Of a stretch of 64,000 bases of DNA, positions 4,774 to 45,130 are shown piece by piece. Source of the DNA: Escherichia phage cardinal; sequence record PQ567651.1; one strand, given 5' to 3'. Position numbers and translations under genes: made by a program. The notes below the pieces were generated by a model, which did not search any database, was not told where the DNA came from, and worked only from the letters and a program-made list of their open reading frames with translations. Positions within the stretch are counted from its first letter, which is position 1. The number at the start of each line of letters is the position of its first letter.

Positions 4774-5046
4774 TTAATGTCGTAGTTCACTAAACTTACA
4801 AACAAAGTGAACGTTAAGAAAAGTTAGTTTTCGATCTGGTGTAAACTCTGTTACTGTTTTATACACCTGTGCAATACCGAACCTGTTGATAGCAGGTACT
4901 GACAATTGGCTTATACATTTCATAGCTGACAGTTTTGCCTCTTCTTCAGATGCAAAATAAGTAAAGATACCTTCTTCGTCAACTATAATTTCTTGTGTAA
5001 CACAATCTACAAAACAAAAGAAAACATTAGGTAATTTTTCCGACAT
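4774..5046 (-). CDS. hypothetical protein
   Basis: 90-aa ORF with RBS. Confidence 0.5.
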   Translation of the reverse strand: MSEKLPNVFFCFVDCVTQEIIVDEEGIFTYFASEEEAKLSAMKCISQLSVPAINRFGIAQVYKTVTEFTPDRKLTFLNVHFVCKFSELRH

Positions 5047-21170: not shown

Positions 21171-21386
21171 TTATGAAATAAATGTCAAAGTAAAATCATA
21201 ATCTTTTGACAGTTTATATTGCACCTTGTTACCGTATATGTCACCTTTACGTAAAGATCCGCGAATACCTATTACATCCTTTACATCTTTAAGATTTTTC
21301 ACGCCTGTAATGTCTTTATTGAAATGATCGTGATCAGAAAATAAAACCTGCTTTGCATTTTTTAACAGTGTGCGGATATTAGCCAT
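21171..21386 (-). CDS. hypothetical protein
   Basis: 71-aa ORF. Confidence 0.5.
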   Translation of the reverse strand: MANIRTLLKNAKQVLFSDHDHFNKDITGVKNLKDVKDVIGIRGSLRKGDIYGNKVQYKLSKDYDFTLTFIS

Positions 21387-21405
21387 TTGATAATCTCTCT
21401 TACTA

Positions 21406-21464
21406 GGGGCGGCACTATTGCCGCCCTATGCATTACATTTTACTGATTTTAGTTATCTTGTCAA
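21406..21464 (-). promoter_or_regulatory. promoter + 5' stem-loop cassette
   Basis: TTGACA-N16-TAAAAT then GGGCGGCAATAGTGCCGCCCC. Confidence 0.6.
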
Positions 21465-36995: not shown

Positions 36996-37472
36996 ATGTC
37001 TAAACGTTTTGGTCGTAATCAAAAAAGAAAGTTAAGTGCTCAACTAGCAGCTTTGCAAAAAGAGGTTAACACTTTACAAAAAAGTGTTTGTGAACTTAAG
37101 GAACAAAACCAACTTGAAAAAGAGTGTATCCAGCTTACACAGGAAGTTATTGGTGAGTATTTTCCTTCACTAGTTCCTAAGAAGGTGGCTCTTAGGGAAA
37201 ATCTACCTTTTACCTTGTCCTTAATGCAAGCAAATGATAGATTCCAAACTGAAACTGATGATTTGATGTTTGCAATGCATCAATTACATGGTTTAGAATA
37301 TACAGCACAAGTGGATAAACTTCGTAACATGTTATATGTGCGGGTAGAAACACCTAAAGGTGAGACAGTAGCTTTTAATTATAATTTCCAACAGCTACCT
37401 GATCATATTATTGAACAAATTTTAAAACGAGATTTTGTTCCTATGCTTGTTAAACAAATTAAGAGAGGTTGA
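36996..37472 (+). CDS. hypothetical protein (coiled-coil N-terminus)
   Basis: 158-aa ORF. Confidence 0.5.
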   Translation: MSKRFGRNQKRKLSAQLAALQKEVNTLQKSVCELKEQNQLEKECIQLTQEVIGEYFPSLVPKKVALRENLPFTLSLMQANDRFQTETDDLMFAMHQLHGLEYTAQVDKLRNMLYVRVETPKGETVAFNYNFQQLPDHIIEQILKRDFVPMLVKQIKRG

Positions 37473-37473
37473 A

Positions 37474-40248
37474 ATGGCTAAGAAAGAGTTGAGCTTCACT
37501 CCGACAGAAGAGCAAACAGCTATTAAGGAGGCTTTTCCAGATCATCGCTTTTTAACTATCCAAGCTAAATCTGGATCAGGTAAAACGTCAACACTTTATT
37601 TGCTGGCTAACAGTACAGAAGATCGCATTCTTTACTTAGCTTTCAATAAAAGCATGGCAGAAGAAGCACGACGTAAGATGCCACCAAATGTAGAATGCCG
37701 TACATTGCATTCTATTTGCTATCAATTCCTGGATCATCGTTTACGTGCAAAACTGTCACGACCAGAAGGACAGTATGTTAACGTTGCAGGTACAGGTAGC
37801 GAGATAGCAAAGAAATTTAAGATTAATAATCTTATTGATAAACGAGGGAAAACACTTTTAACTCGTGCTATGATTGGTTTAATGATCAAGCAAACCGTAG
37901 GTAAGTTTGAATTTTCGGATGATCCTTTTATCAGCCGTAAACATTTTCCTAGTGTACATCTTGCAGATATTAAAAGAAAAGGTATTAACGAACACAAACT
38001 AATTACAGAAGTAGTTAAGTATGCAAAACAATTGTGGCGAGAGCGCATCGATCCTAACACAGATACTTTGATGACGCATGACACCTATGTAAAATTGTTT
38101 GAATTGTCTGGTGCTGATCTTGGTTATGACATTATTTTTGGGGATGAATTCCAGGATGTTAACCCTGCATTCTTGTCTATTCTGCGAAATGCTAAATCTG
38201 CAAAACAAATTGTGGTAGTTGGCGATGAATTCCAATGTGTGTCGGAAAACACGGTACTTAACACCGAGAATGGTCAGGTTACAATGAAAGACCTGCAAAT
38301 CGGTGATAAGGTAGAGTCTTATTCTAATGGTAAAGTTACATTTAGAAAAGTAACAAATAAGACTTTATCTACACGTACAAAAGGTAGGAATATTATTACT
38401 GCTACAGGTAAAACTTTAGATATGACACATAACCATCGTATTTGGGCTTCATCCTATGTTCTGAAAGATGACCAGATGGTGGTATACCTAATGTGGAGGA
38501 AAGATTTAGGTTTCCGAGTAGGGATCACTAACAAATTCGATGATAAAGAAGGTTTTTCTAAACTGGGGCAACGTACACGTTCTGAAAAAGCACAGAAATT
38601 ATGGGTGTTGGACATTGTTGAAAATCGCGAAGCTGCTATGGAAAAAGAAATGGCATACAGTTTACAATATGGCATTCCTACTTGTGTATTTGAAGCAAGT
38701 TCACGCGGCATTAATCAAGAAAGGATCAATAACATCTTTGAACAATTCGGACAAAATGGTTTTAAACTTTTAGAGGATAAAGATTATCATTTTGCTTATC
38801 CACACTGGCACAGCATCAATTGTGCAGTAGATGAAAGAAAAATGCTAACAGTGACTTTGCGAGCACAAAGTTGTAAAGGAACACAAGTTAGTTTTGAGTG
38901 GACAGAAAGTGAAATGCCGATCTATTCTTCACTGATTAAAGCAGGTGTAAGCGTAAGTGCTGCTAAATTGGAAGGTCGTTACCGTGTACGTAAATATTTC
39001 AATTCTTATCGTGAAGCATTGAGTTTTGCACAAAAGATCCTTGAAATAGTTCCGTTTGCATCTTTAAAAGAATGCATGTCCTCTGTGAACAGTGCCAAAT
39101 ATAACTTAATTCCGGCAGCGGGTTTGTTTAAAGGCATGTCTGTGTTGGTAAAAGATGGTGATACTGTAACGGCAGAAGAGATTGTGGATATTGTAGATAG
39201 TGAGGGTATCTATTATGATATTGAAGTAGAGGATACTGCTAACTTCTTTGGCAATGAAATTCTTAGCCACAACTGCATTTATCAATTTAGAGGTAGCTCT
39301 AATATGATGATTGAAACAGCTAAGTATGGGGCAGAACTTCCATTAACTGCTTGCTTCCGTTTTGGCCCCAAAGTGGCAAACATTGCCAATATGATTTTAA
39401 GCGATAAAGAACCTTTGCGTCATCCTTTGGTTGGTAAAGGCTTTGATACTGTAGTAGGTAGCTACAAATCAGATGTTGTAGACTATACAAAACCTTACAC
39501 TATCATCTTTCGCAAGAATTTAACCTTGCTTATGGAGGCAATGGATCGTATTGCAGATGGGGAAGAAATTATTATTAACGTAGATACCAGGGATTTTATC
39601 TCTATGGTAGATAGTGTTAATGCTCTTCGGAGAGGAGATATTGAGAAAGTAAAACATGAAACTGTATTACCTTACGCAGACTGGGATGAATTTGTTGAGT
39701 GTGCAGAGGCTGATCCAGATGCTAAACGCTTGTTAAACATCGTAGTTTCTGGTAAGGCGAACACCATAGCACATACACTTAGAACGCACAGAAATTCTCC
39801 TACAGCAAAAGTCACACTTACTACAGCACACAAGTCTAAAGGTTTGGAGTGGGATCAGGTTATTGTTGCTAATGATTTTCCTTCCAACTATGATAAAAAG
39901 ACTGGTGAATGGGTAGGACTAGAAGAGGCAGAGCGAAACCTACTGTATGTAGCGCATACCCGTTGTGTTAAATGCTTACAATGGAACACAACCGTACAGG
40001 AGATTATAGATATCAATCGTGTTGCAACAGAGAAAGTACCAACAAGCACCACTTTACCGATCAATGGTATTAAACTTGGTGTATTTGGCGCTGGCACATC
40101 TCGAAAAACTGTAGAAAAATTTGTTGCAGATTCTTTTGATGGTAACTATAATCATGCACAAGCATATGAGAGTTGGTTAGAGGAAGGTGAAGGTGATTTT
40201 TTAGGTGAAATAAATCTTTTACCAGACATAAATAAACTGGTAAACTAA
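37474..40248 (+). CDS. SF1 (UvrD/PcrA-like) DNA helicase containing an intein
   Basis: Walker A AKSGSGKTSTL, motif II FGDEFQD, motif III VVVGDEFQ|CIYQFRG split by 346-aa insert; AAGAGAGG RBS. Confidence 0.8.
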   Translation: MAKKELSFTPTEEQTAIKEAFPDHRFLTIQAKSGSGKTSTLYLLANSTEDRILYLAFNKSMAEEARRKMPPNVECRTLHSICYQFLDHRLRAKLSRPEGQYVNVAGTGSEIAKKFKINNLIDKRGKTLLTRAMIGLMIKQTVGKFEFSDDPFISRKHFPSVHLADIKRKGINEHKLITEVVKYAKQLWRERIDPNTDTLMTHDTYVKLFELSGADLGYDIIFGDEFQDVNPAFLSILRNAKSAKQIVVVGDEFQCVSENTVLNTENGQVTMKDLQIGDKVESYSNGKVTFRKVTNKTLSTRTKGRNIITATGKTLDMTHNHRIWASSYVLKDDQMVVYLMWRKDLGFRVGITNKFDDKEGFSKLGQRTRSEKAQKLWVLDIVENREAAMEKEMAYSLQYGIPTCVFEASSRGINQERINNIFEQFGQNGFKLLEDKDYHFAYPHWHSINCAVDERKMLTVTLRAQSCKGTQVSFEWTESEMPIYSSLIKAGVSVSAAKLEGRYRVRKYFNSYREALSFAQKILEIVPFASLKECMSSVNSAKYNLIPAAGLFKGMSVLVKDGDTVTAEEIVDIVDSEGIYYDIEVEDTANFFGNEILSHNCIYQFRGSSNMMIETAKYGAELPLTACFRFGPKVANIANMILSDKEPLRHPLVGKGFDTVVGSYKSDVVDYTKPYTIIFRKNLTLLMEAMDRIADGEEIIINVDTRDFISMVDSVNALRRGDIEKVKHETVLPYADWDEFVECAEADPDAKRLLNIVVSGKANTIAHTLRTHRNSPTAKVTLTTAHKSKGLEWDQVIVANDFPSNYDKKTGEWVGLEEAERNLLYVAHTRCVKCLQWNTTVQEIIDINRVATEKVPTSTTLPINGIKLGVFGAGTSRKTVEKFVADSFDGNYNHAQAYESWLEEGEGDFLGEINLLPDINKLVN
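38236..39273 (+). mobile_element. intein (346 aa) in helicase motif III
   Basis: N-terminal CVSENTVLNT (block A), TLDMTHNHRIW (block B), C-terminal YYDIEVEDTANFFGNEILSHN then +1 Cys. Confidence 0.75.
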
Positions 40249-42583: not shown

Positions 42584-43441
42584 ATGACCCAAAAACTATA
42601 TGAGGATGTAATCGGATTCCTCGAACAAACATCCGAAGAATTTACTCGTGAAAATGCAAACAAACCTGCAATGATTGTTAATACTCACCGAGATTTACTA
42701 GCAGGTATCCTAAGCAAGCACATGGCAATGACCCATATTTTACCTGAAGATTTAGCAGAATGGCATAAAAGTGGGTATGGTCACATCCACGATTTAGATT
42801 ATTTACTCTCACCTTTAACTAATTGTTGCCTGGTAAATTACCAAGATATGCTTGAGAACGGTTTCCGTATTGGTAATGCACATATTGAAAAACCAAAATC
42901 TATCGGTGTAGCGACTACTGTCCTAACTCAAATTATTCAAGCAGTAGCTTCTAGCCAATATGGTGGACAAACTTGTGCACATGTTGATACTGGGCTTAGT
43001 CAATACGTTAAAGCAAGTTTTAATAAAATATATGCCGATGTTGGCGATTATGATATTGCTATGCGTATGGTAGATAAACAGGTCTATGATGCAATGCAAA
43101 CTTTAATCTACCAGGTGAACACTCTAATGAGTGTAAATGGTCAGTCACCTTTTATAACAATTAGTTTAGGTTTGGATACCTCTGCTTTTGGTAGAATGAT
43201 CACTAAAAACTACCTAATGGTGCACAAACAAGGATTGGGAAAAGATAGGGTAACTCCTGTGTTTCCTAAAGTTATCTTCTTCTTGGAAGATGGTGTTAAC
43301 ATGAAAGCTGGCGATCCAAACTATGATTTGAAGCAACTGGCAATGGAGTGTTGTGCTGAACGCATTTATCCTGATTTTATCTCTGTACCTTTAAACAAAG
43401 AAGTTACAGGATCTTCAGATGGTCGCGTCACAAGCATGGGT
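42584..43441 (+). CDS. nrdD: anaerobic ribonucleoside-triphosphate reductase NrdD, exon 1 (3' boundary approximate)
   Basis: N-terminal NrdD-like sequence ...GYGHIHDLDY...; frame hits stop inside intron. Confidence 0.75.
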
Positions 43442-43688
43442 AAACTATAACTGCTCATGTAAAATCTGCCTAAACGGGGGAACTCTCAACGAGACAATCC
43501 CGTGCTAAACGTAACAGAACTCCCAACACAGAAGAAGGGGGGTACTATTACGAAATGCCTAACGACTAGCTGTGATGAATGTAGCAGCGTAGGGTGTAAG
43601 CCTATGACACCCCAAATGGTAGACATGCTTTAAGCATGAAGATATAGTCTGATCTGCATGGTGACATGCAGCAGCACGTAATGGTGCG
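43442..43688 (+). ncRNA. group I self-splicing intron (ORF-less) in nrdD; boundaries approximate
   Basis: aaatctgcctaaacggggg...gagacaatcccgtgctaaa...aatgcctaacgacta...aagatatagtctga.ctgcatggtgacatgcag resembles the T4 nrdD (sunY) intron core as recalled from memory. Confidence 0.7.
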
Positions 43689-44663
43689 GGAGTGGCCTTG
43701 CGAGCCACTTTGAACATAATGTGTAGAAGTTTCTTGTCATACTATGCAACAGAGCAAGGTGAAAAATATGATGGTCGTTTCAACTTAGGCGTAGTTTCTT
43801 TAAACTTACCTATCATTGCAGCAGAGTCCCGTGAAAAGGGCATCTTATTTACTGAACTGTTGGAACAACATATGGAGATGGCGTATAAGGCACATATGCT
43901 ACGTGTTAACCGTATTAGACATACCAAAGCATCTCAAAACCCTACATTGTTTATGGAAGGGGCTTTAGCTCGACTAGAAGCTAATGAAGAGATTGGTAAA
44001 CTATTTGAAGGTGGTTATGCCTCTATTAGTATCGGTTATGTAGGTTTAGCAGAAGCTATGGAGATTTTATACCCAAATAACACCAATCCAAAAGCAATGG
44101 GTAAAAACATCCTTCAATATATGAAGGATATCTGTTGCACATTTAAAGAACGTTCTGGTTTAGCTTTTAGTTTGTATGGAACACCAGCAGAATCCTTGTG
44201 CTATAAATTTGCCAAAGCGTTAAATGATCGCTATCCTGGCTCTATTGATCGTGACTATTTGACAAACTCTTTCCATCAACCTGTATGGATGCACACTACC
44301 CCGTTCCAAAAGTGGGATTATGAGGAAGGTTTTGCACAAATTAGTAATGGTGGGAACATAGGTTATGTAGAAACACCAAACCTTAAAAATAACTTGCAAG
44401 CACTGGAAACTCTTGTAGATTATGCCTACAATAAAATTCCTTATTTTGGCGTGAACCAACCTGTAGATCAGTGTTTCAAATGTGGTTTTCATGGTGAATT
44501 TAAGGCAACAGCTAAAGGCTTCGAGTGTCCAAGTTGTGGAAATCATGAAGAAGAATCCATATCTGTGATCAGAAGAGTGTCAGGATACCTTTCTGCTCCT
44601 AACTCTCGCCCTTATAATAAAGGTAAGATGCAAGAGGTACTAGAAAGGGAGAAACACTTTTGA
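43689..44663 (+). CDS. nrdD: anaerobic ribonucleoside-triphosphate reductase NrdD, exon 2 (5' boundary approximate)
   Basis: NIMCRSF near exon start; C-terminal glycyl-radical motif RVSGYL and Zn site CFKCGFHG...CPSCG. Confidence 0.8.
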   Translation, partial: GVALRATLNIMCRSFLSYYATEQGEKYDGRFNLGVVSLNLPIIAAESREKGILFTELLEQHMEMAYKAHMLRVNRIRHTKASQNPTLFMEGALARLEANEEIGKLFEGGYASISIGYVGLAEAMEILYPNNTNPKAMGKNILQYMKDICCTFKERSGLAFSLYGTPAESLCYKFAKALNDRYPGSIDRDYLTNSFHQPVWMHTTPFQKWDYEEGFAQISNGGNIGYVETPNLKNNLQALETLVDYAYNKIPYFGVNQPVDQCFKCGFHGEFKATAKGFECPSCGNHEEESISVIRRVSGYLSAPNSRPYNKGKMQEVLEREKHF

Positions 44664-45130
44664 ATTACGCCGGATATGAACCTGTTGACATGCTCAACGG
44701 TGACGGTGTAAGATGCTCTTTGTGGGTGAGCGGTTGTAGCCACGGTTGCCGTGGCTGCTTTAACCAGAAAGCCTGGTCGTATAACTACGGACAAGAGTTC
44801 ACTGCTGAAACATTAGATCTTATCTTGGAAGATTTATCTCGACCTTTCATTAAAGGATTAACAGTTTTAGGTGGTGAACCTCTTGACAAAGAGAACATTG
44901 ACACTGTAGAGTATGTTCTTGAGAAGGTAAGAGATTGTTTTGGAAACAAAAAAGATATTGTCTTATATACAGGATATCTTTTTGAAGAAATTCCAGAGAA
45001 AATTAAAAAACTGGTTGACATAGTGATAGATGGTAAGTATGATATGAATCAACCAACAACGAAACGTTATAGAGGTTCAGATAATCAACGAATGTGGGTT
45101 AAGAAAGACAACATTTGGGAATCTGACTAA
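44660..45130 (+). CDS. nrdG: anaerobic RNR activating protein (radical SAM) NrdG
   Basis: CSHGCRGC radical-SAM cluster motif; directly downstream of nrdD; TTG start overlapping nrdD stop. Confidence 0.7.
   Translation: MNYAGYEPVDMLNGDGVRCSLWVSGCSHGCRGCFNQKAWSYNYGQEFTAETLDLILEDLSRPFIKGLTVLGGEPLDKENIDTVEYVLEKVRDCFGNKKDIVLYTGYLFEEIPEKIKKLVDIVIDGKYDMNQPTTKRYRGSDNQRMWVKKDNIWESD

Follow-up and report, generated by a model that had tools for sequence, protein, structure and literature searches.

An ORF-less group I intron, probably a decayed mobile element, separates the finger-loop Gly and Cys codons of nrdD in a phi92-like coliphage

In the 64,000-nucleotide stretch of phage DNA analysed here (the window), the gene for the anaerobic ribonucleotide reductase, nrdD, appears as two raw ORFs (42584-43450 and 43692-44663 in the ORF list; all window features described below lie on the plus strand), which raises the question of whether these are two genes or the separated halves of one. 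The phage is a phi92-like coliphage (Justusliebigvirus), with a nrdD region 99% identical to that of phage phi92 and other Justusliebigvirus genomes. The surrounding genes form an anaerobic (class III) ribonucleotide reductase operon, nrdD then nrdG. The latter encodes the radical-SAM activase (44660-45130; Pfam Fer4_12, E = 1.4e-41; also annotated in phi92) and overlaps the nrdD stop codon, and the operon is otherwise intact. A first-pass annotation had proposed that the nrdD frame is broken by a noncoding insert with in-frame stops, beyond which coding resumes, and that this insert is a group I intron; both proposals hold. We consider it very likely that 43442-43721 is a group I intron lying between the Gly and Cys codons of MG|CRSF in a phi92-like nrdD, that it is spliced to give a 599-residue NrdD, and that it is a decayed mobile element.

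The boundaries come from an alignment with the uninterrupted nrdD of a close relative, W22, against which the window carries an exact 280-nt insert at 43442-43721. Specifically, W22 reads AGC ATG GGT|TGC CGT AGT TTC where the intron allele reads AGC ATG GGT|[280 nt]|TGT AGA AGT TTC, and the empty insertion site reads ATGGGT|TGCCGTAGTTTC. Exon 1 (42584-43441; 286 codons) ends ...ACA AGC ATG GGT, encoding T S M G. Past 43441 its frame runs GGT AAA CTA TAA, that is K, L and a stop, and this TAA (43448-43450) truncates NrdD at 288 residues if the RNA is unspliced. Exon 2 (43722-44663) supplies 313 codons plus the stop, with the glycyl-radical domain inside it, and its first codon, TGT at 43722, specifies Cys287, the equivalent of Cys290 in T4 NrdD. 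The first-pass annotation thus had the 5′ boundary, 43442, exactly right, but its 3′ boundary, 43688, lies 33 nt short of the true end at 43721, and its length of about 245 nt falls 35 nt short of the actual 280. Alignment with T4 NrdD agrees with its placement of the intron just upstream of the finger-loop Cys. It had exon 2 begin merely near that Cys region; the Cys is the right one, but its codon is the very first of exon 2, and the NIM of the NIMCRSF that had been read as exon 2 is translated intron, exon 2 opening with CRSF.

Conceptual splicing from 43441 to 43722, across the predicted junction ...AGCAUGGGU|UGUAGAAGU, joins GGU|UGU and yields a 599-residue NrdD that shares 100% identity with the uninterrupted W22 protein and matches Pfam NRDD with E = 2.7e-166. 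[quoted passage not shown] In T4 NrdD, the finger-loop Cys290 lies within 288-MGCR-291 (PMC4493059). No codon of the host gene is more critical than the one at which this selfish element sits.

What kind of element is it? The first-pass annotation had suggested a covariance-model search, and in that search Rfam family RF00028 matches 43396-43671 over the full model (1-253) with 72.3 bits, where the gathering score is 50 (E = 2e-16); no other Rfam family exceeds its gathering score anywhere in the 64-kb window. The automatic Rfam alignment is mis-registered at its 5′ end, where it places “P1/P2” at 43396-43445, a placement that contains nonstandard pairs, ignores the true splice site and was rejected. 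The structure was instead assigned by hand, P1 by manual assignment plus covariation, and in this assignment all 14 core helices are fully standard-paired in the intron and there is no P2. The 5′ strand of P1 consists of the last 7 nt of exon 1, CAUGGGU (43435-43441), which make 7/7 standard pairs with the internal guide sequence GCUCAUG (43453-43459), a guide identical to that of the T4 sunY intron. The wobble pair U43441.G43453 marks the 5′ splice site. This U.G is retained in nine of ten sequences, and in all nrdD copies the 5′ exon ends in a G-paired U and the intron ends in G; the distal P1 pair has been swapped from C-G to G-C in JSE.

The remainder of the core follows in order. P3 (43465-43470 with 43618-43623) is paired in 100% of alignment cells and shows compensatory changes in 3/6 pairs. 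The P4-P5 domain occupies 43474-43503 (P4, 43474-79 with 43498-503; P5, 43484-87 with 43491-94), and the P6-P6a-P6b arm, assigned by hand and from a minimum free energy (MFE) fold, occupies 43504-43558. P7, the helix that carries the guanosine-binding site in group I introns, pairs GACUA (43564-43568) with UAGUC (43645-43649); 100% of its cells are paired, and a U-A pair is replaced by C-G in TH18. P7.1 (43569-73 with 43584-88) and P7.2 (43592-97 with 43607-12) each include four pairs with compensatory changes. Hand assignment, covariation and the MFE fold all contribute to the P8 hairpin (43624-38), to P9.1 (43674-77 with 43684-87) and to P9.2 (43691-96 with 43704-09), while P9 itself (43654-60 with 43665-71) is closed by a GUGA loop. 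The terminal G, or omega-G, is G43721 at the 3′ splice site, a boundary set by the W22 alignment, and the last intron base is G in 10/10 family members examined. Extra hairpins P7.1 and P7.2 are typical of subgroup IA, and with P1, P3-P9.2, P7.1/P7.2 and no P2 the intron is of the subgroup IA type. Within that subgroup it is probably IA2-like in the Michel-Westhof classification.

The drawn structure is supported by covariation in a set of 10 related introns, including those of phi92, PD06, nepoznato, HMD-6, TH18, JSE, Vibrio phage F99 and T4, and taking in the terminase-gene intron of Aeromonas phage 4L372D. ORF-bearing loops were trimmed, the sequences were aligned with MAFFT by sequence alone, and the window structure was projected onto the alignment. 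Across the 10 introns 94.0% of cells are paired, versus 31-46% in controls whose partners were slid by 1-3 columns; compensatory changes affect 35 of 73 pairs, versus 5-10 in the slid controls. The observed pairing values were reached by 0/500 shuffles, a control that is inflated by the relatedness of the 10 introns; the slid-partner control is free of that weakness. Compensatory changes are seen in P1, P3, P4, P5, P6a, P7, P7.1, P7.2, P8, P9, P9.1 and P9.2. The paired percentages of P8, P9.1 and P9.2 (79-85%) are underestimates, because sequence-only MAFFT leaves these helices partly out of register. Moreover, an unconstrained MFE fold of the 280 nt recovers every nested helix, with z = -2.9 against shuffles. 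The first-pass annotation had named a lack of group I structure as a result that would count against it; what emerged is a structure drawn through P1 and P3-P9.2, with covariation, and together with the RF00028 match above threshold and the paired core helices this bears out its identification of a group I intron in nrdD.

P10 is assigned tentatively. In the candidate, intron CUAUA (43445-43449) makes 5/5 pairs with exon-2 UGUAG (43722-43726); it is displaced by 3 nt and so is not adjacent to the guide, 80% of its cells are paired across the family, and intronless alleles (UGCCG) are unable to form it. Vibrio phage introns have a different complementary P10 pair, UUGGCA with UGCCGA. A P10 directly adjoining the guide in the Vibrio manner was rejected for the window, where AUAACU does not pair with UGUAGA, and an alternative that joins intron AAACU to exon-2 AGUUU (+8 to +12) was considered.

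If the intron follows the established group I pathway, the nrdD-nrdG pre-mRNA would fold into the ribozyme, and CAUGGGU at the end of exon 1 would pair with the guide GCUCAUG, U43441.G43453 setting the 5′ splice site. Free guanosine bound in P7 would then attack this site, after which the terminal G43721 would occupy the guanosine site and exon 1 would attack the 3′ splice site, giving GGU|UGU. The spliced mRNA would encode the same 599-residue NrdD as that of intronless relatives, and the unspliced RNA would encode a 288-residue fragment devoid of both the radical Cys and the glycyl-radical domain. We infer actual splicing from sequence, in which the boundaries, the covarying fold, the restored ORF, the presence-absence polymorphism and the signature of lateral transfer can be read directly.

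The intron was also described in the first-pass annotation as ORF-less, and indeed no sense-strand ORF in the insert exceeds 43 codons; the longest, at 43 codons, overlaps the ribozyme core, and no homing endonuclease ORF was found. In arall, phiWec187, VEcB, SD2, nepoznato and nieznany, the last two being Phapecoctavirus phages, the same intron is 769-770 nt long and its P6a loop holds an ORF of 169 codons. The 169-residue product is an HNH endonuclease (phrog_59, E = 2e-34; Pfam HNH_3 and an I-HmuI-NUMOD-like match just below cut-offs), and the intron ORFs of JSE and Vibrio F99 fall into these families too. The UAG at 43567-43569, inside the ribozyme core at P7/P7.1, is the stop codon of the HNH ORF in the ORF-containing relatives. 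Taking 490 nt out of the arall intron gives that of phi92, with 3 nt of microhomology (CTG) at the joint; in the window, the lost ORF has left its scar at about 43546-43548, within the P6-P6a-P6b arm. PD06-type introns (290 nt) have a different deletion, of 479 nt with endpoints read by eye, that kept the last codons of the ORF (...TTATGATTATGAGTTCTG...). Since the phi92-type and PD06-type deletions differ, the lack of an ORF is a derived condition, reached at least twice.

The window copy is 100% identical to the intron of “Justusliebigvirus alia” (OZ035770). It shares gene, insertion site and splice junction with phi92 (NC_023693 / FR775895) but is 280 rather than 279 nt long and differs from it at two places: there is an extra G at 43542, and A replaces G at 43547, which opens the sixth P6a pair. 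To judge from the sequence, both differences are peripheral. The element is a decayed mobile intron whose HNH homing-endonuclease gene has been deleted, and it would have had a history of homing. With that gene deleted, it is therefore no longer able to home by itself. Its insertion site is closed to re-invasion, and the intron could be mobilised in trans if a relative that carries the endonuclease infected the same cell.

A population survey with an 880-nt probe spanning the junction places this copy among its relatives. The probe found 136 records that are ≥99% identical, about 19 of which are phi92-type records with the intron, and it found the intron in 33 records when more distant phages are included. 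Among the records listed, at least 27 have a span of exactly 600 nt, 280 nt shorter, and are intronless; most phi92-like phages are without the intron. By size, 13 records have an intron of 279/280 nt, 6 have one of 290 nt, 11 have one of 769/770 nt that includes the ORF, and 4, from TH18-like phages, have one of 252 nt. Intronless, ORF-less and ORF-containing alleles are all present among records with exons ≥98% identical. One phage genus therefore displays a homing-cycle series that comprises the empty site, the intron with its endonuclease gene, and two independent deletions of that gene. Four records labelled “Campylobacter phage” (A150, A145, C3 and A110a; MG065639, MG065645, MG065656 and MG065689; ~146 kb) are 99% phi92-like across nrdD and the intron and look like mislabelled or contaminant coliphage genomes.

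The exon sequence beside the junction also bears a mark. Within 200 nt on either side, the sole differences from W22 are at exon-2 positions +3, +4 and +6 (TGT AGA versus TGC CGT), all synonymous, and TGTAGA is common to all coliphage intron-plus alleles. These changes fit co-conversion with the intron and possibly P10 pairing as well. Farther afield, the MG|C site also holds homologous introns in JSE (Krischvirus), HMD-6 and TH18 (Vequintavirinae), nepoznato (Phapecoctavirus) and Vibrio phages F99 and 184E37.1, with cores 79-99.6% identical. Their ORF, where present, is the homologous HNH gene in P6a, and most keep it (760-819 nt); TH18 has no ORF, and its P6a hairpin is short, as in T4. Identity of the intron core was compared with that of flanking 300-nt exon stretches: the core is 99.6% identical in nepoznato, with exons at 78-80%, 91% in HMD-6 (exons 67-73%), 87% in TH18 (77-78%), 84% in JSE (62-68%) and 79% in Vibrio phage F99 (60-62%). 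Core identity far above exon identity is the expected signature of lateral spread by a mobile intron. The nrdD gene of F99 (OZ196423) has at least two interruptions, one at QYG|G (residues 127/128 of the NrdD of the window phage) by a segment with a 309-residue HNH endonuclease ORF, and the other by an intron of 819 nt at the MG|C site, with a 168-residue HNH ORF; in Vibrio phage 184E37.1 only the MG|C site is interrupted.

Could nrdD instead be a split gene that needs no splicing? On that account, a 288-residue piece and a piece of about 323 residues, begun at the GTG at 43692, would be translated separately and assemble into an active NrdD. There is a reported precedent for such an arrangement in the NrdA of Aeromonas phage Aeh1, which is split by mobE and whose halves form an active enzyme (PMC3653736, PMC7344957). 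Most related records annotate two CDSs, implicitly a split gene, and the phi92 annotators marked a ribosome-binding site (RBS; GGAG) before the downstream ORF. However, both this “RBS” and the GTG sit inside the conserved P9.2 hairpin, the break would hit the radical Cys on the finger-loop tip exactly, and a mere spacer would not keep a complete group I ribozyme with covariation. Excision, moreover, yields a protein identical to the uninterrupted NrdD. We regard separate translation as extremely improbable.

An intron that has ceased to splice well is a different matter, in that it accepts the ribozyme and questions its activity: loss of the ORF together with the changes in P6a/P6b would have made splicing inefficient, leaving a dead intron and an nrdD pseudogene. 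The endonuclease ORF has decayed, one P6a pair is opened and a G is added relative to phi92, and the anaerobic enzyme may be dispensable in the laboratory. In particular, nrdD is probably dispensable in aerobic laboratory growth, and a splicing-dead intron could for that reason persist. Against this, both exons are intact and encode a protein identical to that of a functional-looking intronless allele, and all catalytic-core helices are intact. The changes lie in a peripheral arm that tolerates an insertion of ~490 nt in relatives and is short in TH18 and T4, and the same ORF-less form recurs in at least 13 independent records. A dead intron thus seems very unlikely. An intein, a frameshift or another RNA family was rejected as well, given the in-frame stops, a length of 280 nt that is not a multiple of three, and RF00028 as the sole match. 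The reading we favor is still that of a group I intron spliced from the nrdD mRNA.

The first-pass annotation had likened the insert to the T4 nrdD (sunY) intron. The kinship of the ribozymes is real, but the insertion sites differ. The two introns interrupt the same host gene, their cores are 69.7% identical over intron positions 12-231 (220 nt), their guides (GCUCAUG) are the same, and both lack P2 and have P7.1/P7.2 and P9.1/P9.2. However, the T4 intron is inserted at GAG T|AT (YE|YE), at residue ~180 and about 110 codons upstream, and the T4 MGCRSF, here split at the Gly289|Cys290 equivalent, is uninterrupted. The T4 intron is also 1033 nt long and carries the GIY-YIG gene I-TevII in the P9.1 loop, after P9, whereas the MG|C family has its HNH ORF in P6a. 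The intron is therefore a paralogous insertion of the T4 ribozyme family and not the positional orthologue of the T4 intron. This link to sunY, the same ribozyme and guide at a different site, is the modest added value of the present analysis.

How one lineage came to occupy two sites in one gene invites a more tentative proposal. The T4 sunY and Cys290-site introns might be two insertions of a single ribozyme lineage, moved by guide-directed reverse splicing into an ectopic AUG(A/G)GU and later endowed with different endonuclease genes (GIY-YIG in P9.1, HNH in P6a). The hexamer complementary to the guide, ATG(A/G)GT, occurs only twice in the spliced T4 nrdD, at exactly the two family insertion sites, and a rough neighbor-joining tree places the T4 intron inside the family, together with the one at the Vibrio MG|C site. 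Because chance alone would place this hexamer about once in a gene and the branches of the tree are unsupported, we put ectopic transposition forward as a possibility that is, on balance, rather doubtful. A further hint is that at least four phage groups (Straboviridae, Vequintavirinae, Stephanstirmvirinae and Vibrio myophages) share this intron, with far greater identity in the intron than in the exons. In the view of 2010, such introns were not shown to cross phage clusters (PMC2993671), and an ectopic-insertion reading with sharing across groups runs counter to it.

In kind, the intron is ordinary, and it is already known, being annotated in phi92. That phage ribonucleotide reductase genes harbour group I introns, frequently at catalytic residues and in some cases with HNH or GIY-YIG genes inside, is textbook knowledge (PMC2988022, PMC3653736), and the position of such introns at conserved critical codons, with or without HNH genes, has been described (PMC3653736). 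Those of Staphylococcus phage Twort nrdE, T4 nrdB and SPbeta bnrdE/F, likened to the present intron by description, lie in different genes and at different sites. A distant relative in another gene is found in Aeromonas phage 4L372D (MK813939; about 2392-2691), where the large terminase gene is broken, at the junction ...CAAGGGT|...AAAAG|TACAATATT, by a group I intron of 300 nt that has no ORF and whose core is about 70% identical to the nrdD family; the record annotates the terminase as two CDSs.

The phi92 record already contains the correct product, in that its RefSeq/ENA joined CDS PHI92_gene_192A, “spliced variant” (CCF23320.1 / UniProt I7IDU2), is the exact product of the junction described here. 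In most GenBank records of such phages, whether phi92-like, rV5-like or related to these, nrdD is entered as two or three “large subunit” CDSs; the correct product would be a single 599-residue protein from an mRNA spliced at GGU|UGU. The GTG at 43692, preceded by GGGAG, mimics the start of an independent gene, and phi92 has an RBS and a CDS there. Because the GTG and GGGAG lie inside the conserved P9.2 hairpin, this apparent start is probably an artefact of ORF calling. A literature search whose reach stopped short of the phi92 genome paper (PMC3457257) found no paper on the structure or splicing of this intron.

Several further features were noted in passing. ARAGORN found no tRNA genes in the 64-kb window; the phi92 record marks a “hypothetical tRNA” (4792-4879 of the phi92 stretch) within the ATPase gene that follows closely on nrdG, but on the opposite strand. 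A subthreshold Rfam match to the hilD 3′UTR at 21284-21439 (+; 30.8 bits against a gathering score of 74, E = 0.015) is probably due to chance. At 37435-40248 (+), the ORF of a 937-residue UvrD-like helicase seems to harbour an intein about 345 residues long, which splits the helicase domains: the insert starts at ...GDEFQ|CVSENTVL and ends at ...ILSHN|CIYQFRGS, and Pfam Intein_splicing and Hint match residues ~267-613 just below their cut-offs.
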